Source of the DNA: Nemertoderma westbladi
Lineage: Eukaryota > Animalia > Xenacoelomorpha
NCBI GenBank assembly: GCA_032718475.1
Contig: JAUCBJ010004655.1
Coordinates: 1 to 64,000, forward strand
DNA length: 64,000 nucleotides
Direction of reading: 5' to 3'
Shown here one piece after another: positions 6,411 through 52,000 of the stretch; within the stretch, counting starts at the first letter, position 1, and every line of letters starts with the position of its first letter. The position numbers were made by a program, and so were the translations under genes. The notes below the pieces were generated by a model. That model saw nothing but the letters and a program-made list of their open reading frames with translations. It did no database searches and was not told the origin of the DNA.

Positions 6411-6904
6411 CATGGTTTATATACATGGTTTACTGTAAAATTGATTTTCTTATTTGTTTTTACAGTCGTTCTTGGGAATTCAGTATTTTAATGTTAATTC
6501 GATTTACCGATCTGTTAATAATTAAATATTGCTATATATGTAATAGTAAAATAAATTGGATGAGGGGCGCCATATTAAATAAAAACAACTACAATTAATC
6601 ATGAAATATTGGAAAATCTCAATCTATAGTAAACCTGAATGATTTACCTAAAAAAATTGAATGATTATTGATTGTAGACCTATGGAAAAACGTCAATTAA
6701 AATATATTTTTAAAAAGAAAAAAATTTTTAAAAAAATTTTTTTTTTTTCACCATTCCAACTATTCATTGTCCGACAAGATGTGCAGATACATCCTGTCGG
6801 ACAAGATCCAATATCAATTTGGGATCGTTCACGTGAACAGAGTGGAAAAGTCTGAGTATCTATTTTATATCTTCTGTATATATTTTAGTCGACATTTTTT
6901 TTAG

Positions 6905-7078
6905 ATTGTTTCATTTACAATGGGGGGTCTGTATGGAGGTCACCTTGAATATGACGGTGTGGCAGCAGTTGAACTCAATGTTGGCATGTTTTTTAACGGT
7001 CCACACCTTTGTGGACTCTGCGGCAACTGGGATTTCGAGCCATTTAATGACTTCTTGAATCCAAATGGAGAACCCGTA
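6905..7078 (+). CDS. Exon 1 in window: C-terminal part of VWD domain
   Basis: ttag|ATT...GTA|gtaagt; IVSFTMGG..HLEYDG..LCGLCGNWD..NDFLNPNG contains the VWD CGLCGN motif. Confidence 0.9.
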
Positions 7079-13000: not shown

Positions 13001-16000
13001 ACTTCAATCTGGTTGTTGGTAGTATCAAATAACTGGGGACAGTTGTAGCAGTCTGGTTGATGTTAGTATCAAATAATTCAGACTCATAAAGACTGGAGAC
13101 TTCAATCTGGTTGTTGGTAGTATCAAATAACTGGGGACAGTAGCAGTCTGGTTGTTGTTAGTATTAAATAATTCAGACTCATAAAGACTGGAGACTTCAA
13201 TCTGGTTGTTGGTAGTATCAAATAACTGGGGACATTAGCAGTCTGGTTGTTGTTAGTATCAAATAATTTATACTGATAAAGACTGGAGACTTCAATCTGG
13301 TTGTGGGGGTAGTATCAAATAACTGGGGACAGTAGCAGTCTGGTTGTGGGTTGTATCAAATAACTGGGGACAATACTGTAGCAGTCTGGTTGTTGTTAGT
13401 ATCAAATAATTCAGACTCATAAAGACTAGAGACTTCAATCTGGTTGTGGGGGTAGTATCAAATAACTGGGGACAGTAGCAGTCTGGTTGTGGGTTGTATC
13501 AAATAATTCAGACTCATAAAGACTGGAGACTTCAATCTGGTTGTTGGTAGTATAAAATAACTGGGGACAGTTGTAGCAGTCTGGTTGTTGTTAGTATCAA
13601 ATAATTCAGACTCATAAAGACTGGAGACTTCAATCTGGTTGTTGGTAGTATAAAATAACTGGGGACAGTAGCAGTCTGGTTGTTGTTAGTATCAAATAAT
13701 TCAGACTCATAAAGACTGGAGACTTCAATCTGGTTGTTGGTAGTATAAAATAACTGGGGACAGTAGCAGTCTGGTTGTTGTTAGTATCAAATAATTCAGA
13801 CTCATAAAGACTAGAGACTTCAATATGGTTTATTGGTAGGCTCAAATAATTCAAACGCAAAACTACTGGAGACAGCAAGGTCTGGTTGTGGGTTGAATCA
13901 AATTATTCAGACTCACTGGAGGTAGCATATTGGTTGTGGGAGTAGCAGTCTGCAAAATTTCTGTCGTAGTTCTGACTATGTCCTCTAGTTCTACAAGATG
14001 TATCGCGCTTGAAACATAATTCAGGGTTTAAGTCAACCAAACCGTTTATTATTTTGTACACAAATGAAATTGCAGTCGTTCAATATAAGATAGACTTTGG
14101 TCTAAATTGCTTCGAAGTAATCGACGTGTAAAAATCTTTGCACCGATTCTAGGCGGTCACTTTGCCCTAAATAAGGTCTGCTGTTGGAGTGGGGGTTCCA
14201 AACGCAACGGTCTCGGTCTTGCATAAACTTTATATGCAGTTACCAAAGGGATAGGTCTAATTAAGGACAATACTGTTGTATTGATGCCCGTTTAACTATA
14301 GTTTTAATATATTCGCCAAAATTCAATTTGTTATTAATAATTACACCGAGGTCCCTATGATTAATAACGTTACTACTGCATTAATTGTATTTTCTGCGAC
14401 AAGTGTCGGTCGACCGATACTTAGTACTTTACATTTCTTTTTAGCATCTCTCAACTGCCACCCTTTGGACCACTTGACGAATATATCAATAGTTTCCTGC
14501 AGTAGAAAACGTTCAGTAATGTTTGAAAATTTAAAAATATTTTCGCATCACTGGAAATATTATCTGTTAGGTCTCCTACATACATTCCAAAGTGTCCGGT
14601 CCGGTCCGGTCCGGTCCGGTCCGGTCCGGTCCGGTCCGGTCCGGTCCGGTCCGGTCCGGTCCGGTCCGGTCCGGTCCGGTCCGGTCCGGTCCGGTCCGGT
14701 CCGGTCCGGTCCGGTCCGGTCCGGTCCGGTCCGGTCCGGTCCGGTCCGGTCCGGTCCGGTCCGGTCCGGTCCGGTCCGGTGGTCCGGATAATGTTCCTTG
14801 GGCTATTCCCGATTATACTATTTGATATTTTGAAAAAGAGTTGCCCACCTTTACCCGTTGCACCCTATCATTGAAAAATTTCGTGTACCGATTAATGACA
14901 CCGGCACAGCACGCGCCACACGGTACGTACCGATAACGGCTTATGCAGCTTGTGTTGTCTGCATCTGTGATGAATGACTTACTGTTAGGCCTACCTAACT
15001 TAATCATACTGAAAGTATAGTTACTTTATTTCACGCCGTGAGATATACAGTAGGCCCCTAGCCCATATCATATCATTGAGTTTACTTGTTATCGCGGCGT
15101 ATTTTACGCCGACTTGAAAATAAAGATTTATATATTTTTCAGAGATTGAATGTGGGGAAAATATGGAATACGAGGTTTGTCACCTTCCCTGTCAATCGTC
15201 GTGCACTAACATTGAACCGAGTTGTAGTGAGGAGAGTTGCGTAGAAGGTTGTTTTTGCGCCGCCGGTAAGACCTACGACCAAGGTGAATGTGTAGATGCC
15301 CAGCAATGCGGTTGTCGCCATACCAACGGTAATTACTACTCGGTGAGTCTATCATAAAACAAATCAAGAAGATATTGTGTACGGGAAATTTTTGTTTCTC
15401 TTACAGTAGCTTTTATATGCAAATTAGTATATTAGACCTCTACTACCACAGAATATGATTCAAATATTATATTATAATACTGAATTTCAATGGTGTCAGG
15501 CGGCAGAGGTTTATCTGTTCACCAATTTTGTTCTGTATTATTCTAAATTAAAGCCCGATGAAATATGTAAAGGCAAATGTACGCACAATTGATTCTACTG
15601 TAGGCCTACCACACGTACCTACACCTATACACACTTCCTTCCGAACAGCCAAGTAAACTTAGAATCATGGATAATGATACCAATTCCGATAGATAGGGGA
15701 ATGCTAATTAAAAACAAGGATTCACGGTTCATATACTAATCGATAGATTGGGGCGGCAATAATGTGAACGATACCTCTAGGAACGCAGGCAAAAATATCC
15801 CTGATGATAAAGAACTTAAATCACACTTTGAAGGTTTACTAAACCCGGCGGCTGATGCAGTGAAGATTTCGAATCTTCTCACCACATACTTCATTTGGAT
15901 GACCAGTTCAGTGCGAAGGAACTTGCAGAATCTATGGCGAATATAGAGAACTCTAAATCATATTGATACAGTTTGGGGTAGGGCGGGTTGACCTCGGTGT

Positions 16001-28000: not shown

Positions 28001-31000
28001 AGGGCGGATCCTTTAGGCGGATCCTAAAGGGCCTTGCATCCTAAATGAGTACTGGAGTTTCCTCTGGGGAGTAAAGTTCTGGGCGAACCGCACTGGAAAT
28101 AGGTCGTCAGACTTCGTGCGTAATCCCTGGCCTAACGGCCGAAGAAAATTTACTTTACTTTACTTTTATGTATGTAGTATAAATCTCATTGTAAACTACC
28201 TGATTGGGATATTCTTATCCTTTCATGCAGCCCTGATGCGGAGTGCGCCAATGTAGATGGATCCTACTCTTGTACGTGCAACGAAGGTTACCGTGGAAAC
28301 GGCCGACAGTGTGTGGACATTGACGAGTGTGTGGAGCGAATTCACGACTGCGATCCACATGCTGACTGTACCAACACCCCCGGCGATCATTATTGTGAAT
28401 GTCATGATGGTTACCAAGGCAATGGTGAAAATTGCATATGTTAGTATTGGAGAAATAACACCATCACACACAGCGGGACGTCGTCGTAAAAATTTTGCGG
28501 CTTGAAATTTTTTTAACAACCAAACAGTTGCTGTGGCAAGCCAGGTGTTCAGCAGTTTTAATTAATTTATTGTAATTAACGTTTACAATAATTTATGTTT
28601 GCAGTGGAGAGTACATGTAACCCTGGCGACTGCAACCAAGCTGCCCGATGTGATCTCGTAAACGACGAACCGCAATGTGTTTGTCTTCCCGGCTATACCG
28701 GAGATGGCAATGACTGTGATGGTAAGTAAACGGCCCACGCAATGACTGTGATGGTAAGTAAACGGCCCACACAATGACTGTGATGGTAAGTAAACAGCCC
28801 CCGCAATGACTGTGATGGTAAGTAAACAGCCCCCGCAATGACTGTGATGGTAAGTAAACGGCCCACGCAATGACTGTGATGGTAGGTAAACGGCCCACGC
28901 AATGACTGTGATGGTAAGTAAATGGCCCACGCAATGACTTACGGAAAGAGATGGCAATGACTGTGATGGTAAGTAAACGGCCCACGCAATGACTGTGATG
29001 GTAAGTAAACGGCCCACGCAATGACTGTGATGGTAAGTAAACGGCCCCCGCAATGACTTACGGAAAGAGATGGCAATGACTGTGATGGTAACTAAACCGC
29101 CCACGCAATGACTTACGGAAAGAGATGGCAATGACTGTGATGGTAAGTAAACGGCCCACGCAATGACTTACGGAAAGAGATGGCAATGACTGCGATGGTA
29201 AGTAAACGGCCCACGCAATGACTTACGGAAAGAGATGGCAATGACTGTGATGGTAAGTAAACGGCCCACGCAATGACTGTGATGGTAAGTAAACGGCCCC
29301 CGCAATGACTTACGGAAAGAGATGGCAATGACTGTGATGGTAAGTAAACGGCCCACGCAATGACTGTGATGGTAAGTAAACGGCCCCCGCAATGACTTAC
29401 GGAAAGAGATGGCAATGACTGTGATGGTAAGTAAACGGCCCACGCAATGACTGTGATGGTAAGTAAACGGCCCCCGCAATGACTTACGGAAAGAGATGGC
29501 AATGACTGTGATGGTAAGTAAACGGCCCACGCAATGACTGTGATGGTAAGTAAACCGCCCACGCAATGACTTACGGAAAGAGATGGCAATGACTGTGATG
29601 GTAAGTAAACGGCCCACGCAATGACTGTGATGGTAAGTAAACGGCCCCCGCAATGACTTACGGAAAGAGATGGCAATGACTGTGATGGTAAGTAAACGGC
29701 CCACGCAATGACTGTGATGGTAAGTAAACGGCCCACACAATGACTGTGATGGTAAGTAAACGGCCCACGCAATGACTGTGATGGTAAGTAAACGGCCCAC
29801 ACAATGACTTACGGAAAGAGATGGCAATGACTGTGATGGTAAGTAAACGGCCCACGCAATGACTGTGATGGTAAGTAAACGGCCCACACAATGACTGTGA
29901 TGGTAAGTAAACGGCCCCCGCAATGACTGTGATGGTAAGTAAACGGCCCACGCAATGACTGATGGTAAGTAAACGGCCCACGCAATGACTGTGATGGTAA
30001 GTAAACGGCCCACACAATGACTTACGGAAAGAGATGGCAATGACTGTGATGGTAAGTAAACGGCCCACGCAATGACTGTGATGGTAAGTAAACGGCCCAC
30101 ACAATGACTGTGATGGTAAGTAAACGGCCCCCGCAATGACTGTGATGGTAAGTAAACGGCCCACGCAATGACTGTGATGGTAAGTAAACGGCCCACACAA
30201 TGACTGTGATGGTAAGTAAACGGCCCACACAATGACTTACGGAAAGAGATGGCAATGATTGTGATGGTAAGTAAATGGCCCACACAATGACTTACGGAAA
30301 GAGATGGCAATGACTGTGATGGTAAGTAAACGGCCCACACAATGACTGATGGTAAGTAAACGGCCCACGCAATGACTGATGGTAAGTAAACGGCCCACGC
30401 AATGACTGTGATGGTAAGTAAACGGCCCACACAATGACTTACGGAAAGAGATGGCAATGACTGTGATGGTAAGTAAACAGCCCCCGCAATGACTGTGATG
30501 GTAAGTAAACGGCCCACGCAATGACTGTGATGGTAGGTAAACGGCCCACGCAATGACTGTGATGGTAAGTAAATGGCCCACGCAATGACTTACGGAAAGA
30601 GATGGCAATGACTGTGATGGTAAGTAAACAGCCCCCGCAATGACTGTGATGGTAAGTAAACGGCCCACGCAATGACTGTGATGGTAGGTAAACGGCCCAC
30701 GCAATGACTGTGATGGTAAGTAAATGGCCCACGCAATGACTTACGGAAAGAGATGGCAATGACTGTGATGGTAAGTAAACGGCCCACGCAATGACTGTGA
30801 TGGTAAGTAAACGGCCCACGCAATGACTGTGATGGTAAGTAAACGGCCCCCGCAATGACTTACGGAAAGAGATGGCAATGACTGTGATGGTAACTAAACC
30901 GCCCACGCAATGACTTACGGAAAGAGATGGCAATGACTGTGATGGTAAGTAAACGGCCCACGCAATGACTTACGGAAAGAGATGGCAATGACTGCGATGG

Positions 31001-34000
31001 TAAGTAAACGGCCCACGCAATGACTTACGGAAAGAGATGGCAATGACTGTGATGGTAAGTAAACGGCCCACGCAATGACTGTGATGGTAAGTAAACGGCC
31101 CCCGCAATGACTTACGGAAAGAGATGGCAATGACTGTGATGGTAAGTAAACGGCCCACGCAATGACTGTGATGGTAAGTAAACGGCCCCCGCAATGACTT
31201 ACGGAAAGAGATGGCAATGACTGTGATGGTAAGTAAACGGCCCACGCAATGACTGTGATGGTAAGTAAACGGCCCCCGCAATGACTTACGGAAAGAGATG
31301 GCAATGACTGTGATGGTAAGTAAACGGCCCACGCAATGACTGTGATGGTAAGTAAACCGCCCACGCAATGACTTACGGAAAGAGATGGCAATGACTGTGA
31401 TGGTAAGTAAACGGCCCACGCAATGACTGTGATGGTAAGTAAACGGCCCCCGCAATGACTTACGGAAAGAGATGGCAATGACTGTGATGGTAAGTAAACG
31501 GCCCACGCAATGACTGTGATGGTAAGTAAACGGCCCACACAATGACTGTGATGGTAAGTAAACGGCCCACGCAATGACTGTGATGGTAAGTAAACGGCCC
31601 ACACAATGACTTACGGAAAGAGATGGCAATGACTGTGATGGTAAGTAAACGGCCCACGCAATGACTGTGATGGTAAGTAAACGGCCCACACAATGACTGT
31701 GATGGTAAGTAAACGGCCCCCGCAATGACTGTGATGGTAAGTAAACGGCCCACGCAATGACTGATGGTAAGTAAACGGCCCACGCAATGACTGTGATGGT
31801 AAGTAAACGGCCCACACAATGACTTACGGAAAGAGATGGCAATGACTGTGATGGTAAGTAAACGGCCCACGCAATGACTGTGATGGTAAGTAAACGGCCC
31901 ACACAATGACTGTGATGGTAAGTAAACGGCCCCCGCAATGACTGTGATGGTAAGTAAACGGCCCACGCAATGACTGTGATGGTAAGTAAACGGCCCACAC
32001 AATGACTGTGATGGTAAGTAAACGGCCCACACAATGACTTACGGAAAGAGATGGCAATGATTGTGATGGTAAGTAAATGGCCCACACAATGACTTACGGA
32101 AAGAGATGGCAATGACTGTGATGGTAAGTAAACGGCCCACACAATGACTGATGGTAAGTAAACGGCCCACGCAATGACTGTGATGGTAAGTAAATGGCCC
32201 AAGCAATGACTGTGATGGTAAGTAAACGGCCCACACAATGACTTACGGAAAGAGATGGCAATGACTGTGATGGTAAGTAAACGGCCCACACAATGACTTA
32301 CGGAAAGAGATGGCAATGACTGTGATGGTAAGTAAACGGCCCACACAATGACTGATGGTAAGTAAACGGCCCACGCAATGACTGTGATGGTAAGTAAATG
32401 GCCCAAGCAATGACTGTGATGGTAAGTAAACGGCCCACACAATGACTTACGGAAAGAGATGGCAATGACTGTGATGGTAAGTAAACGGCCCACACAATGA
32501 CTTACGGAAAGAGATGGCAATGACTGTGATGGTAAGTAAACGGCCCACACAATGACTGATGGTAAGTAAACGGCGCACGCAATGACTGTGATGGTAAGTA
32601 AATGGCCCAAGCAATGACTGTGATGGTAAGTAAACGGCCCACACAATGACTTACGGAAAGAGATGGCAATGACTGTGATGGTAAGTAAACCGCCCACACA
32701 ATGACTGATGGTAAGTAAACGGCCCACGCAATGACTTACGGAAAGAGATGGCAATGACTGTGATGGTAAGTAAACCGCCCACGCAATGACTTACGGAAAG
32801 AGATGGCAATGACTGTGATGGTAAGTAAACGGCCCACGCAATGACTGTGATGGTAAGTAAACGGCCCCCGCAATGACTTACGGAAAGAGATGAATGACTG
32901 TGATGGTAAGTAAACGGCCCACGCAATGACTGTGATGGTAAGTAAACGGCCCACACAATGACTGTGATGGTAAGTAAACGGCCCACGCAATGACTGTGAT
33001 GGTAAGTAAACGGCCCACACAATGACTTACGGAAAGAGATGGCAATGACTGTGATGGTAAGTAAACGGCCCACGCAATGACTGTGATGGTAAGTAAACGG
33101 CCCACACAATGACTGTGATGGTAAGTAAACGGCCCCCGCAATGACTGTGATGGTAAGTAAACGGCCCACGCAATGACTGATGGTAAGTAAACGGCCCACG
33201 CAATGACTGTGATGGTAAGTAAACGGCCCACACAATGACTTACGGAAAGAGATGGCAATGACTGTGATGGTAAGTAAACGGCCCACGCAATGACTGTGAT
33301 GGTAAGTAAACGGCCCACACAATGACTGTGATGGTAAGTAAACGGCCCCCGCAATGACTGTGATGGTAAGTAAACGGCCCACGCAATGACTGTGATGGTA
33401 AGTAAACGGCCCACACAATGACTGTGATGGTAAGTAAACGGCCCACACAATGACTTACGGAAAGAGATTGCAATGATTGTGATGGTAAGTAAATGGCCCA
33501 CACAATGACTTACGGAAAGAGATGGCAATGACTGTGATGGTAAGTAAACGGCCCACACAATGACTGATGGTAAGTAAACGGCCCACGCAATGACTGTGAT
33601 GGTAAGTAAATGGCCCAAGCAATGACTGTGATGGTAAGTAAACGGCCCACACAATGACTTACGGAAAGAGATGGCAATGACTGTGATGGTAAGTAAACGG
33701 CCCACACAATGACTTACGGAAAGAGATGGCAATGACTGTGATGGTAAGTAAACGGCCCACACAATGACTGATGGTAAGTAAACGGCCCACGCAATGACTG
33801 TGATGGTAAGTAAATGGCCCAAGCAATGACTGTGATGGTAAGTAAACGGCCCACACAATGACTTACGGAAAGAGATGGCAATGACTGTGATGGTAAGTAA
33901 ACGGCCCACACAATGACTGATGGTAAGTAAACGGCCCACGCAATGACTGTGATGGTAAGTAAATGGCCCAAGCAATGACTGTGATGGTAAGTAAACGGCC

Positions 34001-37000
34001 CACACAATGACTTACGGAAAGAGATGGCAATGACTGTGATGGTAAGTAAACCGCCCACACAATGACTGATGGTAAGTAAACGGCCCACGCAATGACTGTG
34101 ATGGTAAGTAAATGGCCCAAGCAATGACTGTGATGGTAAGTAAACGGCCCACACAATGACTTACGGAAAGAGATGGCAATGACTGTGATGTTAAGTAAAC
34201 GGCCCACACAATGACTTACGGAAAGAGATGGCAATGACTGTGATGGTAAGTAAACGGCCCACACAATGACTTACGGAAAGAGATGGCAATGACTGTGATG
34301 GTAAGTAAACGGCCCACACAATGACTTACGGAAAGAGATGGCAATGACTGTGATGGTAAGTAAACGGCCCACACAATGACTTACGGAAAGAGATGGCAAT
34401 GACTGTGATGGTAAGTAAACGGCCCACACAATGACTGTGATGGTAAGTAAACGGCCCACACAATGACTTACGGAAAGAGATGGCAATGACTGTGATGGTA
34501 AGTAAACGGCCCACACAATGACTTACGGAAAGAGATGGCAATGACTGTGATGGTAAGTAAACGGCCCACACAATGACTGTGATGGTAAGTAAACGGCCCA
34601 CACAATGACTTACGGAAAGATATGGCAATGACTGTGATGGTAAGTAAACGGCCCACACAATGACTTACGGAAAGAGATGGCAATGACTGTGATGGTAAGT
34701 AAACGGCCCACACCTTGACTTACGGAAAGAGATGGCAATGACTGTGATGGTAAGTAAACGGCCCACACAATGACTTACGGAAAGAGATGGCAATGACTGT
34801 GATGGTAAGTAAACGGCCCACGCAATGACTGTGATGGTAAGTAAACGGCCCACGCAATGACTGTGATGGTAAGTAAACGGCCCACACAATGACTTACGGA
34901 AAGAGATGGCAATGACTGTGATGGTAAGTAAACGGCCCACACAATGACTTACGGAAAGAGATGGCAATGACTGTGATGGTAAGTAAACGGCCCACACAAT
35001 GACTTACGGAAAGAGATGGCAATGACTGTGATGGTAAGTAAACGGCCCACGCAATGACTGTGATGGTAAGTAAACGGCCCACGCAATGACTTACGGAAAG
35101 AGATGGCAATGACTGATGGTAAGAAAACGGCCCACACAATGACTGATGGTAAGTAAACGGCCCACGCAATGACTTACGGAAAGAGATGGCAATGACTGTG
35201 ATGGTAAGTAAACGGCCCACGCAATGACTGTGATGGTAAGTAAACCGCCCACGCAATGACTGTGATGGTAAGTAAACGGCCCACACAATGACTTACGGAA
35301 AGAGATGGCAATGACTGTGATGGTAAGTAAACGGCCCACACAATGACTGTGATGGTAAGTAAACGGCCCACGCAATGACTTACGGAAAGAGATGGCAATG
35401 ACTGTGATGGTAAGTAAACGGCCCACACAATGACTGTGATGGTAAGTAAACGGCCCACACAATGACTGTGATGGTAAGTAAACGGCCCACACAATGACTT
35501 ACGGAAAGAGATGGCAATGACTGTGATGGTAAGTAAACGGCCCACACAATGACTTACGGAAAGAGATGGCAATGACTGTGATGGTAAGTAAACGGCCCAC
35601 ACAATGACTTACGGAAAGAGATGGCAATGACTGTGATGGTAAGTAAACGGCCCACACAATGACTTACGGAAAGAGATGGCAATGACTGTGATGGTAAGTA
35701 AACGGCCCACGCAATGACTGTGATGGTAAGTAAACGGCCCACGCAATGACTTACGGAAAGAGATGGCAATGACTGTGATGGTAAGTAAACGGCCCACACA
35801 ATGACTGTGATGGTAAGTAAACGGCCCACACAATGACTTACGGAAAGAGATGGCAATGACTGTGATGGTAAGTAAACGGCCCACACAATGACTTACGGAA
35901 AGAGATGGCAATGACTGTGATGGTAAGTAAACGGCCCACGCAATGACTGTGATGGTAAGTAAACGGCCCACACAATGACTTACGGAAAGAGATGGCAATG
36001 ACTGTGATGGTAAGTAAACGGCCCACACAATGACTTACGGAAAGAGATGGCAATGACTGTGATGGTAAGTAAACGGCCCACACAATGACTTACGGAAAGA
36101 GATGGCAATGACTGTGATGGTAAGTAAACGGCCCACGCAATGACTGTGATGGTAAGTAAACGGCCCACGCAATGACTTACGGAAAGAGTTGGCAATGACT
36201 GTGATGGTAAGTAAACGGCCCACACAATGACTTACGGAAAACGGCTGAAACTGAAAATTTGGGATTTCGTAGTTTCGTAATTAGGGTTATTTCATGTTCC
36301 ATTCCGCTCACCATTCCAATAAACAGTTCACATAAAATGTGAACATGGAAATACCTCCTGATGATGTGTTGTATGTCTGGAATTAACTTACTTACCGCCG
36401 TAAAAATACAAAAATTATATCTTAATGTCAATTAGTAGTAATTAGTTTATTACTCATTACAACTAATTACTTTTTTCCTAATTTAACCAGACGTCGACGA
36501 ATGTGAGGAGCTGGGGGACTCTGCGTGCCACGCTAGGGCCACCTGCAGCAACAAGCCGGGTGGGCACGATTGCGAATGCAACGACGGTCTCCTAGGCGAC
36601 GGGGTCAACAACTGCGACGAGCCGGACGCGTGCGCGACGCACTCAGGTTGCGATGCCAACGCCCACTGTGTAAACGGCGCTAACGGAGCACGTTGCGAGT
36701 GTAACACTGGTTATATTGGTGACGGGACAGAATGCGAGGACATTAACGAGTGTCTTGAGGAGGATTGTGGAGACAATGCCATTTGTATCAATAAACCCGG
36801 ATTTTATATCTGTGTGTGCGAAGAAGGGTCTACTAGGAATGGTAAGTAAAAGTAGGCAGGGGACTGAATGGTTTCCATAAGGTGAGCAGGGGCTATTACT
36901 GTAGGGCCCATGATCGTCGTGTGTTCAGATAATACAATATTAGTGCTGTACTAACGTGTACTTTCGTAAACATTCACAAATATTAAGTACTAGTTTCTAA

Positions 37001-40000
37001 CTTGAGGTTAATGAGGGTTCTCTATAGTTGTACATGGTTCTAAATCGATGTTGTTTACTTAAATTAAGCATATGGTTTATCACTCTATACTCTTACTCGA
37101 TTTATATGGTTTCTCACACGATGTCCAATGCATGGTTCCCGTTTTTAGATCTACATGATTTCACTTGATGTACCCTTGATTTTTTTAAATTTAGTTTTCA
37201 ATCTTCAAATATGATCCCCATTGTGGTATATTATGTGTTATTTTAAAATATTATCTTATGTTCAGGGTTACAGGTTACAACTGTTATTGTAAAGTTTGGA
37301 AATAGTAAAAAAAATTAAATTAAATAATATTATAATATTAATATTATACAGACGAATTTTGCTATATCCATCTTAGGACCACTGATATGTTAAATATCGG
37401 TTTGACACAATCCAGATACAGTAAGCGGATATAAACTGACTACTAAAACCCCAATCTAAAAGAAAGGTGACCAATCGATCCGACAAACTATCGCCTCGTC
37501 GACATTTCCAGTACACATCCAAACCCAATTACAGTTGAGAAACTCTTGTGTAACAATTTGAACTGAATCTAAAATCAAACAATTTTTTAGCATCACATTA
37601 ATTCAGTTTGGTTTCACGATATTAGTTGTAAGGAAACTAACTACATACGTGTTCAGCCGGTCCCAAGTGTTAATATTTACACGAACGAGCGGAGCGAGTG
37701 AGTGAAATATTGAAACGAGGCACCGAATGTTTATCACCCGGGTGAAAAATACAAAAAAATAGAAATAATTGCCGCAATAATAAGTCACCGTAGGAATATC
37801 CTTATAATTAATTAAATATACCTGCTAATTGCTGTTTTTACAAACAACATTCATTGAGTAATAAATTACTCATTACGACGCTTATTCCCATTGATTATCA
37901 GATGGGGCCTCATTGAATTCCTTGACATTGGATTTCTAGGAGAGTTGTGTGTGGACGATGATGAATGCTCCAACGGATCCAACGATTGCTCACCCAATGC
38001 TATCTGCTCCAACCTAGACGGGGGCGGCTACACATGTAACTGTAAACCTGGCTTCGAAGGCAATGGAAGAATTTGTGAAGGTAATATTATTTAATTATAT
38101 AAACTTTACATTACATAAAAATTATAGATAAAGGAAAGACATTATTGAGTTAGACCACATGAAGAATACCTTCATTTACTACAGTAACTTAATCTAAAAT
38201 CACAATTTCAGAACTTTGAACATGAGAAAACCAAAACAGGAAATGTAAGCTGCACGATATTAAACATCTACAAGTTTTTCTAAGTTCACCCTCTCATTAC
38301 ATTTTTTAATTTAAATGTCTTGTTTTTATATTGTAATAATACGATAAAGCTATCTAATCAATAAATGCTTACAGACATTGACGAATGTTCCCCTAGCAAC
38401 GGGTCGCCAAATTCATGCGGTTCCCTAGGGCCGGGAGGGAAATGCTCGAACACCGCTGGTTCGTTTGTTTGTGAGTGCGAACCACCGCTGGTACTGAAAG
38501 ATGGTTCGTGTTCGCCACCAGATGGGCCGAACTCAGTGGTACCATGTGAGGTTAGTTTGTGAGTGCGAACCACCGCTGGTACTGAAAGATGGTTCGTGTT
38601 CGCCACCAGCTGGGCCGAACTCAGTGGTACCATGTGAGGTTAGTTTGTGAGTGCGAACCACCGCTGGTACTGAAAGATGGTTCGTGTTCGCCACCAGCTG
38701 GGCCGAACTCAGTGGTACCATGTGAGGTTAGTTTGTGAGTGCGAACCACCGCTGGTACTGAAAGATGGTTCGTGTTCGCCACCAGATGGGCCGAACTCAG
38801 TGGTACCATGTGAGGTTAGTTTGTGAGTGCGAACCACCGCTGGTACTGAAAGATGGTTCGTGTTCGCCACCAGCTGGGCCGAACTCAGTGGTACCATGTG
38901 AGGTTAGTTTGTGAGTGCGAACCACCGCTGGTACTGAAAGATGGTTCATGTTCGCCACCAGCTGGGCCGAACTCAGTGGTACCATGTGAGGTTAGTTTGT
39001 GAGTGCGAACCACCGCTGGTACTGAAAGATGGTTCGTGTTCGCCACCAGCTGGGCCGAACTCAGTGGTACCATGTGAGGTTAGTTTGTGAGTGCGAACCA
39101 CCGCTGGTACTGAAAGATGGTTCGTGTTCGCCACCAGCTGGGCCGAACTCAGTGGTACCATGTGAGGTTAGTTTGTGAGTGCAACCACCGCTGGTACTGA
39201 AAGATGGTTCGTGTTCGCCACCAGCTGGGCCGAACTCAGTGGTACCATGTGAGGTTAGTTTGTGAGTGCGAACCACCGCTGGTACTGAAAGATGGTTCGT
39301 GTTCGCCAACAGCTGGGCCGAACTCAGTGGTACCATGTGAGGTTAGTTTGTGAGTGCGAACCACCGCTGGTACTGAAAGATGGTTCGTGTTCGCCACCAG
39401 CTGGGCCGAACTCAGTGGTACCATGTGAGGTTAGTTTGTGAGTGTGAACCACCGCTGGTACTGAAAGATGGTTCGTGTTCGCGTTCGTGGTGCCATGTCA
39501 GTTAGTTGGATGAACGCTGTGGTACCATATGGATTTAGGTGGGTGGACACTGCGTTACCATGTGGATTTAGTTGGGTGAATGCTGTGGTACCATGTGGAT
39601 TTAGTTGGGTGAACGCCGTGGTACCCTGTGGATTTAGTTGGGTGAACGCTGTGGTACCATGTGGATTTAGTTGGGTGAACGCCGTGGTACCCTGTGGATT
39701 TAGTTGGGTGAATGCTGTGGTACCATGTGGATTTAGTTGGGTGAACGCCGTGGTACCCTGTGGATTTAGTTGGGTGAACGCTGTGGTACCATGTGGATTT
39801 AGTTGGATGAACACTGTGGTACCATGTGGATTTAGTTGGGTGAACACTATGGTACCATGTGGATTTAGTTGGGTGAACACTGTGGTACCATGTGGATTTA
39901 GTTGGATGAACGCTGTGGTACCATGTGGATTTAGTTGGGTGAATACTGTGGTGCCATGTCAGTTAGTTAGATGAACGCTGTAGTACCATGTGGATTTAGT

Positions 40001-43000
40001 TGGATGAACGCTGTGGTACCATGTGGATTTAGTTGGGTGAATAATGTGGTGCCATGTCAGTTAGTTGGATGAACGCTGTGGTACCATATGGATTTAGTTG
40101 GGTGAACACTGTGTTACCATGTGGATTTAGTTGGGTGAATGCTGTGGTACCATGTGGATTTAGTTGGGTGAACGCCGTGGTACCCTGTGGATTTAGTTGG
40201 GTGAATGCTGTGGTACCATGTGTATTTAGTTGGGTGAACACTATGGTACCATGTGGATTTAGTTGGGTGAACACTGTGGTACCATGTGGATTTAGTTGGA
40301 TGAACGCTGTTGTACCATGTGGATTTAGTTGGGTGAATACTGTGGTGCCATGTCAGTTAGTTGGAGACCGCTGTGGTACCATGTGGATTTAGTTGGGTGA
40401 ACACTGTGGTACCTTGTGGATTTAGTTGGATGAACGCTGTGGTACCATGTCAGTTAGTTGGATGAACGCTGTGGTACCATATGGATTTAGTTGGGTGAAC
40501 ACTGTGTTACCATGTGGATTTAGTTGGGTGAATGCTGTGGTACCATGTGGATTTAGTTGGATCAACGCTGTGGTACCATGTGGATTTAGTTGGGTGAACA
40601 CTGTGGTACCATGTGGATTTAGTTGGATGAACGCTGTGGTACCATATGGATTTAGTTGGGTGAACACTGTGGTACCATGTGGATTTAGTTGGATGAACGC
40701 TTTGGTACCATGTGGATTTAGTTGGGTGAACACTATGGTACCATGTCGATTTAGTTGGGTGAATACTGTGGTGCCAGTCAATTAGTTGGATGAACGCTGT
40801 GGTACCATATGGATTTAGTTGGGTGAACACTGTGTTACCATGTGGATTTAGTTGGGTGAATGCTGTGGTACCATGTGGATTTAGTTGGATCAACGCTGTG
40901 GTACCATGTGGATTTAGTTGGGTGAACACTATGGTACCATGTGGATTTAGTTGGGTGAATACTGTGGTGCCATGTCAGTTAGTTGGATGAACGCTGTGGT
41001 ACCATATGGATTTAGTTGGGTGAACACTGTGTTACCATGTGGATTTAGTTGGGTGAATGCTGTGGTACCATGTGGATTTAGTTGGATCAACGCTGTGGTA
41101 CCATGTGGATTTAGTTGGGTGAACACTATGGTACCATGTGGATTTAGTTGGGTGAACACTGTGGTACCATGTGGATTTAGTTGCGTGAACACTATGGTAC
41201 CATGTGGATTTAGTTGGGTGAACACTGTGGTACCATGTGGATTTAGTTGGATGAATGCTGTGGTACCATGTGGATTTAGTTGGGTGAACACTATGGTACC
41301 TTGTGGAGTTAGTTGGGTGAACACTATGGTACCATGGGGATTTAGTTGGGTGAACACTGTGGTACCATGTGGATTTAGTTGGATGAACGCTGTGGTACCA
41401 TGTGGATTTAGTTGGGTGAACACTATGGTACCTTGTGGAGTTAGTTGGGTGAACACTATGGTACCATGGGGATTTAGTTGGATGAACGCTGTGGTACCAT
41501 GTGGATTTAGTTGGGTGAATAATGTGGTGCCATGTCAGTTAGTTGGATGAACGCTGTGGTACCATATGGATTTAGTTGGGTGAACACTGTGGTACCATGT
41601 GGATTTAGTTGGATGAACGCTTTGGTACCATGTGGATTTAGTTGGGTGAACACTATGGTACCATGTGAATTTAGTTCGGTGAACACTGTGTTACCATGTT
41701 GATTTAGTTGGGTGAATGCTGTGGTACCATGTGGTTTTAGTTGGGTGAACACTATGGTACCATGTGGATTTAGTTGGGTGAAAACTGTGGTACCATGTGG
41801 AATTAGTTTGGTGAACGCCGTGGTACCCTGTGGATTTAATTGGGTGAACGGCGAACGCCGTGGTACCCTGTGGATTTAGTTGGGTGAACGCCGTGGTACC
41901 CTGTGGATTTAGTTGGGTGAAAGCTGTGGAACCATGTCAGTTAGTTGGGTGAACGCCGTGGTACCCTGTGGATTTAGTTGGGTGAACACTGTGTTACCAT
42001 GTGGATTTAGTTGGATGAACGCTGTGGTACCATTTGGATTTAGTTGGGTGAATACTGTGGTGCCATGTCAGTTAGTTGGATGAACGCTGTGGTACCATAT
42101 GGATTTAGTTGGGCGAACACTGTGTTACCATGTGGATTTAGTTGGGTGAATGCTGTGGTACCATGTGGATTTAGTTGGATCAACGCTGTGGTACCATGTG
42201 GATTTAGTTGGGTGAACACTATGGTACCATGTGGATTTAGTTGGGTGAACACTGTGGTACCATGGGGATTTAGTTGGATGAACGTTGTGGTACCATGTGG
42301 ATTTAGTTGGGTGAACACTATGGTACCTTGTGGAGTTAGTTGGGTGAACACTATGGTACCATGGGGATTTAGTTGGGTGAACACTGTGGTACCATGTGGA
42401 TTTAGTTGGATGAACGCTGTGGTACCATATGGATTTAGTTGGGTGAACACTGTGGTACCATGTGGATTTAGTTGGATGAACGCTTTGGTACCATGTGGAT
42501 TTAGTTGGGTGAACACTATGGTACCATGTGGATTTAGTTCGGTGAGCACTGTGTTACCATGTTGATTTAGTTGGGTGAATGCTGTGGTACCATGTGGTTT
42601 TAGTTGGGTGAACACTATGGTACCATGTGGATTTAGTTGGGTGAAAGCTGTGGTACCATGTGGATTTAGTTTGGTGAACGCCGTGGTACCATGTCAGTTA
42701 GTTGGATGAACGCTGTGGTACCATGTGGATTTAGTTGAGTGAACACTGTGGTGCCATGTGGATTTAGTTGGGTGAACGCCGTGGTACCCTGTGGATTTAA
42801 TTGGGTGAACGACGAACGCCGTGGTACCCTGTGGATTTAGTTGGGTGAACGCCGTGGTACCCTGTGGATTTAGTTGGGTGAAAGCTGTGGAACCATGTCA
42901 GTTAGTTGGGTGAACGCCGTGGTACCATTTCAGTTAGTTGGATGAAAGCTGTGGTACCCTGTGGATTTAGTTGGGTGAACGCCGTGGTACCCTGTGGATT

Positions 43001-46000
43001 TAGTTGGGTGAAAGCTGTGGAACCATGTCAGTTAGTTGGGTGAACGCCGTGGTACCATGTCAGTTAGTTGGATGAACGCTGTGGTACCCTGTGGATTTAG
43101 TTGGGTGAACGCCGTGGTACCCTGTGGATTTAGTTGGGTGAACGCTGTGGAACCATGTCAATTAGTTGGATGAACGCCGTGGTACCATGTCAGTTAGTTA
43201 GATGAACGCCGTGGTACCGTGTGGATTTAGTTGGGTGAACACTGTGTTACCATGTGGATTTAGTTGGGTGAACGCTGTGGTACCATGTGGATTTAGTTGG
43301 GTGAACACTGTGGTACTATGTGGATTTAGTTGGGTGAACACCGTGTTACCATGTTGATTTAGTTGGGTGAATGCTGTGGTACCATGTGGTTTTAGTTGGG
43401 TGAACACTGTGGTACCATGTGGATTTAGTTGGGTGAATGCTGTGGTACCATGTGGATTTAGTTAGGTGAACGCTGTGGTACCCTGTGAATTTAGTTGGGT
43501 GAAAGCTGTGGAACCATGACAGTTAGTTGGGTGAACGCCGTGGTACCCTGTGGATTTAGTTGGGTGAACACTGTAGTACCATGTGGATTTAGTTGAGTGA
43601 ATGCTGTGGTACCATGCGGATTTAGTTGGGTGAACGCTTTGGTACCATGTGGATTTAGTTCAGTGAACGCTATGGTACCTTGTGGATTTAGTTGGGTGAA
43701 AGCTTTGGTACCATGTGGATTTAATTGAGTGAACACTGTGGTACCATGTGGATTTAGTTGGGTGAAAGCTGTGGTACCATGTGAATTTAGTTGGGTGAAC
43801 GCTGTGGTACCATGTGGATTTAGTTGGGTGAACGCTGTTACCATGTGGATTTAGTTGGGTGAACGCTGTGGTACCATGTGGATTTAGTTGGGTGAAGACT
43901 GTTACCATGTGGATTTAGTTGGGTGAACGCTGTTGTACCTTGTGGATTTAGTTGGGTGAAAGCTGTGGTACCATGTCAGTTAGTTGGGTGAAAGCCGTGG
44001 TACCCTGTGGATTTAGTTGGGTGAACTCTGTGTTACCATGTGGATTTAGTTGGGTGAACGCTGTGGTACCATGTGGATTTAGTTGGGTGAACGCTGTTAC
44101 CATGTGGATTTAGTTGGGTGAACGCTGTGGTACCATGTGGATTTAGTTGGGTGAACGCTGTTACCATGTGGATTTAGTTGGGTGAACGCTGTGATACCTT
44201 GTGGATTTAGTTGGGTGAAAGCTGTGGTACCATGTCAGTTAGTTGGGTGAAAGCCGTGGTACCCTGTGGATTTAGTTGGGTGAACACTGTGTTACCATGT
44301 GGATTTAGTTGGGTGAACGCTGTGGTACCCTGTGGATTTAGTTGGGTGAACACTGTGTTACCATGTGGATTTAGTTGGGTGAAAGCTTTGGTACCATGTG
44401 GATTTAGATGGGTGAACGCCGTGGTACCATGTGGATTTAGTTGAGTGAACACTGTGGTACCATGTGGATTTAGTTGGGGGAAAGCTTTGGTACCATGTGG
44501 ATTTAGTTGGGTGAAAGCTTTGGTACCATGTGGATTTAGTTGGGTGAACACTGTGTTACCATGTGGATTTAGTTGGGTGAACACCATGGTACCATGTGGA
44601 TTTAGTTGGGTGAACACTGTGGTACCTTGTGGATTTAGTTGGGTGAACACTGTGGTACCATGTGGATTTAGTTGGGTGAACACTGTGGTACCTTGTGGAT
44701 TTAGTTGGGTGAACACTGTGGTACCATATGGATTTAGTTGGGTGAACACTGTGGTAACTTGTGGATTTAGTTGGGTGAACACTATGGTACCATGTGGATT
44801 TAGTTGGGTGAACAATGTGATACCTTGTGGATTTAGTTGGGTGAACACTGTGGTACCATATGGATTTAGTTGGGTGAACACTGTGGTACCTTGTGGATTT
44901 AATTGGGTGAACACTGTGGTACCATGTGGATTTAGTTGGGTGAAAGCTTTGGTACCATGTGGATTTAGTTGGGTGAACACTGTGGTACCATGTGGATTTA
45001 GTTGGGTGATCACTGTGGTACCTTGTGGATTTAGTTGGGTGAACACTGTGGTACCTTGTGGATTTAGTTGGGTGAACACTATGGTACCATGTGGATTTAG
45101 TTGGGTGAACACTGTGCTACCTTGTGGATTTAGTTGGGTGAACACTGTGGTACCATATGGATTTAGTTGGGTGAACACTGTGTTACCATGTGGATTTAGT
45201 TGGGTGAAAGCTTTGGTACCATGTGGATTTAGATGGGTGAACGCCGTGGTACCATGTGGATTTAGTTGAGTGAACACTGTGGTACCATGTGGATTTAGTT
45301 GGGTGAAAGCTTTGGTACCATGCGGATTTAGTTGGGTGAACACTGTGGTACCTTGTGGATTTAGTTGGGTGAACACTGTGGTGCCATGTGGATTTAGTTG
45401 GGTGAACACTATGGTACCTTGTGGAGTTAGTTGGGTGAATACTGTGGTACCATGTCAGTTAGTTGGATGAACGCTGTGGTACCATATGGATTTAGTTGGG
45501 TAAACACTGTGTTACCATTTGGATTTAGTTGGGTAAACACTGTGGTACCATGTGGATTTAGTTGGGTGAACACTATGGTACCTTGTGGAGTTAGTTGGGT
45601 GAATACTGTGGTACCATGTCAGTTAGTTGGATGAACGCTGTGGTACCATATGGATTTAGTTGGGTAAACACTGTGTTACCATTTGGATTTAGTTGGGTAA
45701 ACACTGTGGTACCATGTGGATTTAGTTGGGTGAACACTATGGTACCTTGTGGAGTTAGTTGGGTGAATACTGTGGTACCATGTCAGTTAGTTGGATGAAC
45801 GCTGTGGTACCATATGGATTTAGTTGGGTAAACACTGTGTTACCATGTGGATTTAGTTGGGCGAACACTGTGTTACCATGTGGATTTAGTTGGGTGAATG
45901 CTGTGGTACCATGTGGATTTAGTTGGATCAACGCTGTGGTACCATGTGGATTTAGTTGGGTGAACACTATGGTACCATGTGGATTTAGTTGGGTGAACAC

Positions 46001-49000
46001 TGTGGTACCATGGGGATTTAGTTGGATGAACGTTGTGGTACCATGTGGATTTAGTTGGGTGAACACTATGGTACCTTGTGGAGTTAGTTGGGTGAACACT
46101 ATGGTACCATGGGGATTTAGTTGGGTGAACACTGTGGTACCATGTGGATTTAGTTGGATGAACGCTGTGGTACCATATGGATTTAGTTGGGTGAACACTG
46201 TGGTACCATGTGGATTTAGTTGGATGAACGCTTTGGTACCATGTGGATTTAGTTGGGTGAACACTATGGTACCATGTGGATTTAGTTCGGTGAGCACTGT
46301 GTTACCATGTTGATTTAGTTGGGTGAATGCTGTGGTACCATGTGGTTTTAGTTGGGTGAACACTATGGTACCATGTGGATTTAGTTGGGTGAAAGCTGTG
46401 GTACCATGTGGATTTAGTTTGGTGAACGCCGTGGTACCATGTCAGTTAGTTGGATGAACGCTGTGGTACCATGTGGATTTAGTTGAGTGAACACTGTGGT
46501 GCCATGTGGATTTAGTTGGGTGAACGCCGTGGTACCCTGTGGATTTAATTGGGTGAACGACGAACGCCGTGGTACCCTGTGGATTTAGTTGGGTGAACGC
46601 CGTGGTACCCTGTGGATTTAGTTGGGTGAAAGCTGTGGAACCATGTCAGTTAGTTGGGTGAACGCCGTGGTACCATTTCAGTTAGTTGGATGAAAGCTGT
46701 GGTACCCTGTGGATTTAGTTGGGTGAACGCCGTGGTACCCTGTGGATTTAGTTGGGTGAAAGCTGTGGAACCATGTCAGTTAGTTGGGTGAACGCCGTGG
46801 TACCATGTCAGTTAGTTGGATGAACGCTGTGGTACCCTGTGGATTTAGTTGGGTGAACGCCGTGGTACCCTGTGGATTTAGTTGGGTGAACGCTGTGGAA
46901 CCATGTCAATTAGTTGGATGAACGCCGTGGTACCATGTCAGTTAGTTAGATGAACGCCGTGGTACCGTGTGGATTTAGTTGGGTGAACACTGTGTTACCA
47001 TGTGGATTTAGTTGGGTGAACGCTGTGGTACCATGTGGATTTAGTTGGGTGAACACTGTGGTACTATGTGGATTTAGTTGGGTGAACACCGTGTTACCAT
47101 GTTGATTTAGTTGGGTGAATGCTGTGGTACCATGTGGTTTTAGTTGGGTGAACACTGTGGTACCATGTGGATTTAGTTGGGTGAATGCTGTGGTACCATG
47201 TGGATTTAGTTAGGTGAACGCTGTGGTACCCTGTGAATTTAGTTGGGTGAAAGCTGTGGAACCATGACAGTTAGTTGGGTGAACGCCGTGGTACCCTGTG
47301 GATTTAGTTGGGTGAACACTGTAGTACCATGTGGATTTAGTTGAGTGAATGCTGTGGTACCATGTGGATTTAGTTGGGTGAACGCTTTGGTACCATGTGG
47401 ATTTAGTTCAGTGAACGCTATGGTACCTTGTGGATTTAGTTGGGTGAAAGCTTTGGTACCATGTGGATTTAATTGAGTGAACACTGTGGTACCATGTGGA
47501 TTTAGTTGGGTGAAAGCTGTGGTACCATGTGAATTTAGTTGGGTGAACGCTGTGGTACCATGTGGATTTAGTTGGGTGAACGCTGTTACCATGTGGATTT
47601 AGTTGGGTGAACGCTGTGGTACCATGTGGATTTAGTTGGGTGAAGACTGTTACCATGTGGATTTAGTTGGGTGAACGCTGTTGTACCTTGTGGATTTAGT
47701 TGGGTGAAAGCTGTGGTACCATGTCAGTTAGTTGGGTGAAAGCCGTGGTACCCTGTGGATTTAGTTGGGTGAACTCTGTGTTACCATGTGGATTTAGTTG
47801 GGTGAACGCTGTGGTACCATGTGGATTTAGTTGGGTGAACGCTGTGGTACCATGTGGATTTAGTTGGGTGAACGCTGTTACCATGTGGATTTAGTTGGGT
47901 GAACGCTGTGGTACCATGTGGATTTAGTTGGGTGAACGCTGTGGTACCATATGGATTTAGTTGGGTGAACGCTGTGGTACCATGTGGATTTAGTTGGGTG
48001 AACGCTGTTACCATGTGGATTTAGTTGGGTGAACGCTGTGGTACCATGTGGATTTAGTTGGGTGAACGCTGTTACCATGTGGATTTAGTTGGGTGAACGC
48101 TGTGATACCTTGTGGATTTAGTTGGGTGAAAGCTGTGGTACCATGTCAGTTAGTTGGGTGAAAGCCGTGGTACCCTGTGGATTTAGTTGGGTGAACACTG
48201 TGTTACCATGTGGATTTAGTTGGGTGAACGCTGTGGTACCCTGTGGATTTAGTTGGGTGAACACTGTGTTACCATGTGGATTTAGTTGGGTGAAAGCTTT
48301 GGTACCATGTGGATTTAGATGGGTGAACGCCGTGGTACCATGTGGATTTAGTTGAGTGAACACTGTGGTACCATGTGGATTTAGTTGGGGGAAAGCTTTG
48401 GTACCATGTGGATTTAGTTGGGTGAAAGCTTTGGTACCATGTGGATTTAGTTGGGTGAACACTGTGTTACCATGTGGATTTAGTTGGGTGAACACCATGG
48501 TACCATGTGGATTTAGTTGGGTGAACACTGTGGTACCTTGTGGATTTAGTTGGGTGAACACTGTGGTACCATGTGGATTTAGTTGGGTGAACACTGTGGT
48601 ACCTTGTGGATTTAGTTGGGTGAACACTGTGGTACCATATGGATTTAGTTGGGTGAACACTGTGGTAACTTGTGGATTTAGTTGGGTGAACACTATGGTA
48701 CCATGTGGATTTAGTTGGGTGAACAATGTGATACCTTGTGGATTTAGTTGGGTGAACACTGTGGTACCATATGGATTTAGTTGGGTGAACACTGTGGTAC
48801 CTTGTGGATTTAATTGGGTGAACACTGTGGTACCATGTGGATTTAGTTGGGTGAAAGCTTTGGTACCATGTGGATTTAGTTGGGTGAACACTGTGGTACC
48901 ATGTGGATTTAGTTGGGTGATCACTGTGGTACCTTGTGGATTTAGTTGGGTGAACACTGTGGTACCTTGTGGATTTAGTTGGGTGAACACTATGGTACCA

Positions 49001-52000
49001 TGTGGATTTAGTTGGGTGAACACTGTGCTACCTTGTGGATTTAGTTGGGTGAACACTGTGGTACCATATGGATTTAGTTGGGTGAACACTGTGTTACCAT
49101 GTGGATTTAGTTGGGTGAAAGCTTTGGTACCATGTGGATTTAGATGGGTGAACGCCGTGGTACCATGTGGATTTAGTTGAGTGAACACTGTGGTACCATG
49201 TGGATTTAGTTGGGTGAAAGCTTTGGTACCATGCGGATTTAGTTGGGTGAACACTGTGGTACCTTGTGGATTTAGTTGGGTGAACACTGTGGTGCCATGT
49301 GGATTTAGTTGGGTGAACACTATGGTACCTTGTGGAGTTAGTTGGGTGAATACTGTGGTACCATGTCAGTTAGTTGGATGAACGCTGTGGTACCATATGG
49401 ATTTAGTTGGGTAAACACTGTGTTACCATTTGGATTTAGTTGGGTAAACACTGTGGTACCATGTGGATTTAGTTGGGTGAACACTATGGTACCTTGTGGA
49501 GTTAGTTGGGTGAATACTGTGGTACCATGTCAGTTAGTTGGATGAACGCTGTGGTACCATATGGATTTAGTTGGGTAAACACTGTGTTACCATTTGGATT
49601 TAGTTGGGTAAACACTGTGGTACCATGTGGATTTAGTTGGGTGAACACTATGGTACCTTGTGGAGTTAGTTGGGTGAATACTGTGGTACCATGTCAGTTA
49701 GTTGGATGAACGCTGTGGTACCATATGGATTTAGTTGGGTAAACACTGTGTTACCATGTGGATTTAGTTGGGTAAACACTGTGATACCATGTGGATTTAG
49801 TTGGGTGAACACTGTGGTACCATGTGGATTTAGTTGGGTGAACACTATGGTACCTTGTGGAGTTAGTTGGGTGAATACTGTGGTACCATGTCAGTTAGTT
49901 GGATGAACGCTGTGGTACCATATGGATTTAGTTGGGTAAACACTGTGTTACCATTTGGATTTAGTTGGGTAAACACTGTGGTACCATGTGGATTTAGTTG
50001 GGTGAACACTATGGTACCTTGTGAAGTTAGTTGGGTGAATACTGTGGTACCGTGTCAGTTAGTTGGATGAACGCTGTGGTACCATATGGATTTAGTTGGG
50101 TGAACACTGTGTTACCATGTGGATTTAGTTGGGTAAACACTATGGTACCTTGTGGAGTTAGTTGGGTGAATACTGTGGTACCATGTCAGTTAGTTGGATG
50201 AACGCTGTGGTACCATATGGATTTAGTTGGGTAAACACTGTGTTACCATTTGGATTTAGTTGGGTAAACACTGTGGTGCCATGTGGATTTAGTTGGGTAA
50301 ACACTATGGTACCTTGTGGAGTTAGTTGGGTGAATACTGTGGTACCATGTCAGTTAGTTGGATGAACGCAATGGTACCATATGGATTTAGTTGGGTAACC
50401 ACTATGGTACCATGTGTATTTAGTTGGGTGAACGCTGTGGTAGCATGCGTGAGGTTATTTGGGTGAACAATAGGTGGCATATCTTTCGCGGGTAGGACTA
50501 CATAATTGTTTTGCATTGCATTTTTGTAGCCTGAAGATGAATGCGCTGATGATGCTGAGTGCCGACTAACCGGGAGCGGCGGAAGAGTTTGTCGATGTTT
50601 GTCGGGATTCAGTGGAAATGGAAAGAGCTGTACAAGTTAGTCTTAGGAATTTATCAAGAAATTAAACTCAATATAAAATTTGTCTTATTTTATTACCAAC
50701 TTATCTCAATCCAACTGTAATTTAATTTAATTCACTATTCTAATTGTCCTACTTATTTAATCTCTGCTTATCTTGCAGACATCAATGAATGTTTGGATGG
50801 CTCAGCGAGATGCGATGAGTCAAATGGTAATTGTATCGATACAGACGGGAGTTACGAATGCGAATGTCGGGAAGGTTACACTGGTAGTGGGTTTAATTGC
50901 GAACGTAAGTAATACTGTAATTGTTCGAAATATTAAAAGCTTGTGGATTGTTTGTGAGACATTAAACCGAACCGAATCAATTAGTTACATTATTAATGTA
51001 TTTACGTTCCCTTTAACTTGCGACCGTCGGTATTGTTACATTGATTATGAGGAAGGGTGTGTTTGATTCAGATATTATGTGATGTAAATTGTGTAGGATT
51101 TAGACTCTAAGGTATGAAGAATGTCTCACTTTGTCCTTTTATGACGCCACAATCTTGTATATATTATATTATATTATAGCGATGTGCCGACCTGGAGTTT
51201 GTCGTCATAAACAGACATGCTCTGTCGTAAACAACGCGGCAGTTTGTGAGTGTGTCTGTCAGGACCCGCATTGTGAACCTCTACCAGGGGAAGTCTGTGG
51301 GTCTGACGGTAACACGTATCCTAGCAACGCAGACCTCTTCGAAACATCGTGTCGATTGCCCTCGGAGGAACCAAGATTGACAGTCAGTTACTTCGGAGCC
51401 TGCGAAGGTGAGTGACTCATTAATTATGTTTCTGTAATCATAATTGAACAGTCTGATCCTCTTTGTCTGTCAACAGCCTTTCTAAACACCATCCCCATGG
51501 CTCCCCTGTCACCAGCCAACCAAATACTATCCTTGATCTTTGACTGCCCATCACCAGACTACCAAATACCATTTTTTGCTGTGACACCTCTAGATGGCTC
51601 CCGTATATATTACTGTAAGCATATGCCTACAATTTACTAAACAATACATTCGTTAATTAACAACAGATGAGTGTGATGGAGTTACGTGCCGAGATGGGAC
51701 TAGCTGTGAGGTTGTGGATGGATTAGCGAACTGCGTATGCGATCCTTGTACACCCGAGTCGTACGACAGCGGACTTGTATGCGCGCAGCACCATCAGTTC
51801 GAATCGGAATGCGGTCTACATATATACAACTGTGCGAGCAGTAGTCAGCTCGTTGTCACTAATCCAGGGCCTTGCCCGCAACGTTAGTCATAATTTATAT
51901 ATAAACTTTTTTTCACTAATTTAATTTCATTGTCTCAGATATAAACTAAAAAAATTATAAATTGTAATATTACCACTAATCTTTATTGTAAAGTAAAAGT

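Follow-up and report, generated by a model that had tools for sequence, protein, structure and literature searches.

A minisatellite of 182 donor sites behind an EGF exon of Nemertoderma westbladi: the first copy is spliced, the others are probably neutral passengers

How is an exon joined correctly to the next one if its end is followed by a long series of almost identical 5' splice sites, and does such a series serve its gene in any way? The question is raised by a stretch of 64,000 nucleotides from Nemertoderma westbladi (Xenacoelomorpha; assembly GCA_032718475.1, contig JAUCBJ010004655.1, positions 1 to 64,000 of the forward strand; hereafter, the window). Here a plus-strand gene harbors, within its intron 28722-36490, an array of about 7.5 kb on the same strand, composed of copies of the end of exon 28605-28721 together with the beginning of the intron. 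Our analysis makes it highly probable that the array is a neutral intronic minisatellite, of which the first copy is spliced while the extra copies are carried along as neutral passengers.

According to Tandem Repeats Finder (TRF), the array spans 28707-36232 with periods of 32, 55 and 87 bp. Parsing at the donor-homologous position gave 182 sites, from 28722 to 36207: 175 of the form ATG/GTAAGT (the slash marks the exon-intron boundary), three ATG/GTAGGT, two ATG/GTAACT and single instances of ATG/GTAAGA and ATG/TTAAGT, GT being kept at 181 of the 182. The initial annotation, made from the sequence alone, had put the number of consensus donors near 200 by the length of the array; the count is lower, but the almost universal GT is confirmed, as are the exon end, the array and its end. 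The exonic context ascribed to the copies also proved to be present, though limited: each copy includes the last 13-21 exon bases and the first 18-34 intron bases. The 181 complete units (92 of 32 bp, 73 of 55 bp, 14 of 30 bp and two of 53 bp) represent 28 distinct sequences, whose variants follow one another in ordered patterns. A chance origin of the donor repeats is excluded, because outside the array the 9-mer ATGGTAAGT is found just twice in the window. Larger blocks have been duplicated within the array as well: 1561 bp starting at 28818 are exactly repeated at 30620 (offset 1802), and an exact 563-bp block is present at 29688, 31490 and 32906. Behind the last copy there remain 284 bp of ancestral-type intron (36207-36490), just as had been noted; they end in AG.

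No AATAAA and no acceptor-like tract were found within the array. Its longest pyrimidine run is 5 nt, and at least seven upstream pyrimidines accompany only three of its 338 AG sites, versus all 24 of the real acceptors; recursive or nested splicing and cryptic exons inside the array were rejected, as its AG sites lack acceptor-like pyrimidine tracts. The longest stop-free stretch is 606 codons on the minus strand (28 codons on the plus strand) and was treated not as a gene but as a by-product of the stop-free unit.

As to the choice of the donor, six sequencing runs were available, none of them on record as RNA, and four (X1-X4) were compared with the sequence on either side of the array. One contig of run X4 (sample S3), 2606 nt long and with a depth of 398.8, must be derived from RNA, since it shows spliced GT..AG joints (27341-28231, 28439-28605, 36840-37939 and 38078-38373). 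In this contig position 28721 is followed by the first 30 nt of exon 36491, and position 36490 is preceded by 28691-28720, a 30-mer that occurs once in the window and holds exon bases found in no repeat unit. Therefore the first donor copy is the one used in the assembled transcript, and the proposal that 28721 is a working exon end and that the first copy is favored holds. The junction of 28605-28721 with 36491 is in frame, and the seven exons between 28231 and 50904 translate without stops. The depth of X4 in the last bin at the intron start (258.4) equals that expected from the spliced contig alone (258.42), and it is 0 over 36150-36477. Besides it, X4 has no contig at the start of the intron or at the end of the array and none that uses the nearby pseudo-sites, within the limits of a single run whose contigs drop rare forms and of products that would carry a stop. 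The contig starts at the beginning of exon 27131 (from 27129), and the cover of this one run is near nil over the exons at 25313-26613.

The origin of the units can be largely reconstructed. The 8-bp word CAATGACT occurs at exon position -14 and at position +19 of the residual intron, and this spacing across the donor is exactly 32 bp, which upholds the earlier derivation of the 32-bp unit from a shared microhomology. The 55-bp unit had been attributed to a second jump. Its junction indeed leads from the intron (+34) back to the exon (-21), without exact microhomology, but the opposite order of events fits equally well: the 55-bp unit holds CAATGACT twice, 23 bp apart, and removal of this 23-bp interval yields a 32-mer that is present 19 times. 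The base preceding CAATGACT (+18) is G, as in the exon, in 73 of the 92 32-mers and A, as in the intron, in 46 of the 73 55-mers, both combinations being found in both unit types; such mixing would fit continued exchange at this word. Block turnover, or concerted evolution, is evident from the exact 1561-bp and 563-bp blocks and from variants common to both types of units. We suppose that the array would have started when a short stretch spanning the exon-intron boundary was duplicated in tandem, aided by the 8-bp word on both sides, and would then have grown by slippage and unequal exchange, with block duplications of 0.2-1.8 kb and with recombinant units swapping at the word. Among the 23 other donors, one (51882) has an 8-bp word across it, yet no array; a shared word permits expansion but does not force it.

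The retention of GT, to which a special meaning had been attached, is neutral and reflects the youth and homogenization of the array. Donor positions are substituted at the expected rate: four of the 18 distinct substitution alleles fall on the nine donor positions versus 3.96 expected from exposure (p=1.0), in a test of low power that leaves out two short deletion types. Why the first copy wins could be explained as follows. It is transcribed first and may pair, across the 117-nt exon, with the acceptor upstream, whereas distant copies would have no upstream acceptor of their own, and beyond six copies further growth would add little competition; just six of the 182 donors lie within 300 nt of the acceptor, that is, would give an exon of at most 300 nt. 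Rare mis-spliced RNA would carry the stop at intron position +6 and be destroyed by nonsense-mediated decay. A duplication of this kind would be tolerated, because it spans the donor and leaves both the exon and the first donor intact.

Could the array, or most of its length, be an artefact of assembly? The exact 1561-bp internal duplication and the fact that no contig spans the array would agree with it, but we find this scarcely credible, since read-derived contigs of two samples contain the array, and its 28 unit variants stand in ordered patterns. Run X1 agrees with the window at nearly every letter; it is probably the source of the window sequence, hence not independent. However, X2 and X3, made from one sample (S2) in another study, both show the 55-bp junction, and contigs of X3 break at the same branch points as those of X1 (28730 and 36211). 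X3 further shows differences within exons, at 28366, 36754 and 37968. Depth relative to the flank is 90 in X1, 12 in X2 and 55 in X3 at the array start, and 204, 22 and 33, respectively, at the array end; for another array of the same gene, with an 88-bp unit, the X1 value of 9.6 is close to the 11.6 assembled copies (2.3 in X2, 2.0 in X3). The main array thus differs in depth 1.6- to 9-fold between the samples in four bin comparisons, which hints at a shorter allele in S2, although the depth of contigs does not measure copy number and the two runs of this sample, X2 and X3, give different values. The much shorter allele that depth suggests for another sample also speaks against the idea that selection keeps the array as a sponge for U1 small nuclear ribonucleoprotein (snRNP) or as another regulatory device, which we consider very improbable. 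The consensus form of 175 of the 182 sites would suit a sponge, but donor positions mutate as often as the rest, the homogeneity follows from recent block duplication, two older arrays of the same gene have lost their donor strength, and at most a few thousand nascent sites would be small against the cellular U1 pool of about 10^5-10^6. We found no support for the suggested sequestration of U1.

Somewhat more weight is due to a length-dependent leak, still an unlikely reading, by which copies 2-6 would capture a share of real splicing or slow the intron, the stop at +6 would send the products to decay, and long alleles would lower the output. Copies 2-5 are identical to the real donor, every read-through product stops at 28727, and the depth of the array differs between samples as described. 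On the other hand, the X4 contigs leave the start of the intron and the end of the array uncovered, there is no sign of selection for weaker donors, and competition should saturate after about six copies, so that 182 add little. The proposed damping of expression found no support either, in contigs that are insensitive to leakage. Several points nevertheless count against a strictly neutral array. The second donor copy is as strong as the first one; the RNA support consists of one contig from one run of sample S3, which may carry a short array; leakage would be invisible here, as contigs lose rare forms and decay would remove the stop-carrying RNA. The mode of exon pairing is assumed for this animal: the 300-nt limit comes from vertebrates, and one exon of the host gene measures 351 nt. 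Human CBS and IFI6 also use two nearby pseudo-sites, which makes leakage at copies 2-3 a known outcome, and experiments with tandem-donor globin genes gave conflicting results (PMC1557585). When a transcript has two strong donors, two U1 snRNPs occupy it up to complex A, at which the extra U1 on the second donor is purged (PMC3413131). On balance we retain the neutral minisatellite spliced at its first copy. The coordinates of the main features are collected in the table.

Table. Features of the donor-spanning array, its flanks and related arrays (window coordinates)
Feature	Position	Strand	Evidence
Coding exon of 117 nt, phase 1-1, with a single EGF domain	28605..28721	+	Pfam EGF_3, E 1.3e-7; included in spliced X4 contig
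Seed word CAATGACT, exon copy (-14..-7)	28708..28715	+	Sequence comparison
Authentic 5' splice site ATG/GTAAGT, first copy, the one used	28719..28727	+	Junction of 28721 with 36491 in X4 contig
Array of 181 units (32/30 bp x106, 55/53 bp x75); each unit ends in an exon-end copy, followed by the next donor	28722..36206	+	
In-frame TAA retained by use of any later donor (intron +6)	28727..28729	+	
Higher-order exact duplication within array	28818..32180	+	
Final donor copy with the ancestral-type start of the intron; CAATGACT (intron copy) at 36225-36232	36207..36240	+	Unique contigs of X1 and X3 start at 36211
Unique intron remainder, pyrimidine tract, acceptor AG at 36489-36490	36241..36490	+	
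Following coding exon, with three EGF domains; continues the frame of 28605-28721	36491..36841	+	
Third, diverged array (~97/56/41 bp), from exon end and donor at 10449	10527..13849	+	Alignment
Second exon-end array, 11.6 copies of an 88-bp unit with 11 intact GAG/GTTAGT; first donor (38550) used	38463..39482	+	TRF; X4 contig
Older 33-bp array, ~11 kb, derived from donor 38550	39487..50469	+	TRF; alignment

The array is not the only one in the gene: nine arrays make up about 55% of positions 1-58126. The X4 contig passes from 38550 directly to 50530, skipping the second array system. In the 33-bp part of this system 52 of the 322 donor-homologous sites keep G at +1, and none scores as high as the real donor; in its most frequent unit the donor core (-2 to +1) has been altered and the flanking bases agree with the exon end. 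The array at 10527 aligns with the exon end and donor flank of 10449 with a score of 45 (mean 20.8 and maximum 40 in 2000 shuffles; best other donor 30), whereas with the exon alone the score is 22 and not significant (shuffle maximum 29). The stretch behind 10449 (10450-13860) has 29 weak donor-like sites, none of them as strong as the real one. For the arrays at 1-6418, 15949, 17686 and 18476, comparison with 24 modelled exon ends and starts gave no convincing match to their own upstream exon end; the first of them, of 160 copies of a 40-bp unit, begins outside the window. A match of a 68-bp array to a distant exon end (score 25, shuffle maximum 20) was the best of 48 targets and was treated as chance.

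Three of the six minisatellite systems starting in the window are thus derived from exon ends, a count that excludes the 40-bp array, a 5-bp microsatellite and small TRF rows; a rough post hoc binomial estimate is 0.001-0.012, according to the window that is assumed. Arrays may accordingly be seeded or tolerated at exon ends, a suggestion drawn from one gene and with the main array among the three. The restriction of all three to donors (none at acceptors) is not significant alone (0.5^3 = 0.125), and acceptor-side cases have been published. It would go much further, and we regard it as improbable, to see in exon 3' ends hot spots that seed kilobase-scale minisatellites with a life cycle from intact to decayed donors, where the nearest copies of young arrays would leak into decay, so that heritable differences in array length would tune how much a secreted mucin-like gene produces. 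On the transcribed-sense strand G is in excess in seven of the nine arrays (GC skew 0.15-0.46), and, speculatively, such a strand would suit R-loop formation.

Of the host gene, 24 of 25 attempted exons were modelled, the donor at 27341 being set from the X4 contig. Pfam families (EGF, TIL, C8, Kazal_2 and TSP1) were assigned to nine of the ten exons tested. The tenth is cystine-knot-like, as a lead only (Atlas first hit 0.93, recognition under threshold), and a segment near 6920-7076 carries a motif that we take to be VWD-like. The order VWD/C8/TIL-EGF-Kazal-TSP1-cystine-knot would point to a mucin- or von Willebrand factor-like architecture, in part a lead because of its VWD and cystine-knot members. 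No close homologue or orthologue was found with the 116-aa EGF exon as a query, which gave 28 hits among 74 candidates with at most 48% identity. The intron start at 25499-25520, behind the EGF exon ending at 25498, resembles 28722-28745, and both exons end alike; this exon and 28605-28721 are perhaps products of an old exon duplication. Eight of the 24 modelled donors (window positions 7545-58126) start with GTTAG, six of these with GTTAGT, a high share relative to vertebrate donors. Modelled exon 53742-53961 shows an apparent frame change near 53805-53850, between an EGF-like and a Kazal-like half in two cysteine-rich frames; a 1-base error, an allele or an unmodelled small intron are possible reasons. 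By eye, the intronic stretches 22600-24850 and 55300-57430 contain decayed remnants of reverse transcriptase/endonuclease resembling those of long interspersed nuclear elements, with (TAG)n tails. Upstream of the main array, 27867-28160 looks like a high-copy short interspersed nuclear element, its depth in X1-X3 exceeding that of the flank thousands-fold.

The array belongs to a known class, that of mirages, or donor-spanning minisatellites, and differs in scale only. Several defining features of the class are found here: the first head-to-tail unit spans the real boundary 28721, later units repeat the donor with exon-derived flank, and the main mRNA, to judge by the X4 contig, is spliced at the authentic site. 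The amphioxus mirages (in Adh3, the globins BflGb6 and BflGb9, troponin C and PGBD5) are variable in length and leave splicing undisturbed; they occur on donor and acceptor sides, and somatic instability was reported for that of Adh3 (PMC3087553; PMC3902484). As in N. westbladi, their boundary-spanning units keep the splice signals, several may reside in one gene, and unit lengths are mixed (10-72 bp in Adh3). BflGb6, in contrast, has 3 and 6 copies versus 182 here and duplicates the acceptor side, whereas all three systems described above lie on the donor side. PMC10078293, in its accessible part, contained nothing on donor-spanning repeats. In the literature searched, neither a genome-wide survey of such arrays nor an array of more than 100 copies came up; most subscription papers lay outside the search, so we claim no record.

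The human variable number tandem repeats (VNTRs) at donors have the same architecture: CBS intron 13 with 15-20 copies, IFI6 (6-16) intron 2 with 25 pseudo-sites, LMNB2 with 10-15 units of 100 bp and PDGF intron 4 with 16-18 units of 81 bp (PMC1557585). The number of sites in N. westbladi is about seven times that of the largest of them (25 extra sites in IFI6), and the use of two nearby pseudo-sites, as in CBS and IFI6, was not seen here within the limits of contigs. The case would gain in importance if long alleles measurably lowered the mRNA, or if seeding at donors turned out to be widespread in the genome. The closest parallel is the 37-bp VNTR of intron 7 of human F7, where the first unit likewise spans the junction and is followed by units with an identical donor; splicing takes the site farthest upstream, although the downstream pseudo-sites are functional by mutagenesis (PMC1557585). 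F7 has 5-9 copies with four exon bases each, while the 182 copies of N. westbladi include 13-21 exon bases and belong to units of two interleaved lengths. That the first site is chosen was proven in F7 by mutagenesis and was here observed in one contig. Correct splicing can persist in a species where as many as 181 additional consensus donors follow an exon. Because array length apparently varies among alleles, and young intact arrays stand beside old decayed ones in a single gene, the locus might be used as a natural experiment on how the first 5' splice site is chosen, at copy numbers far above those of F7.

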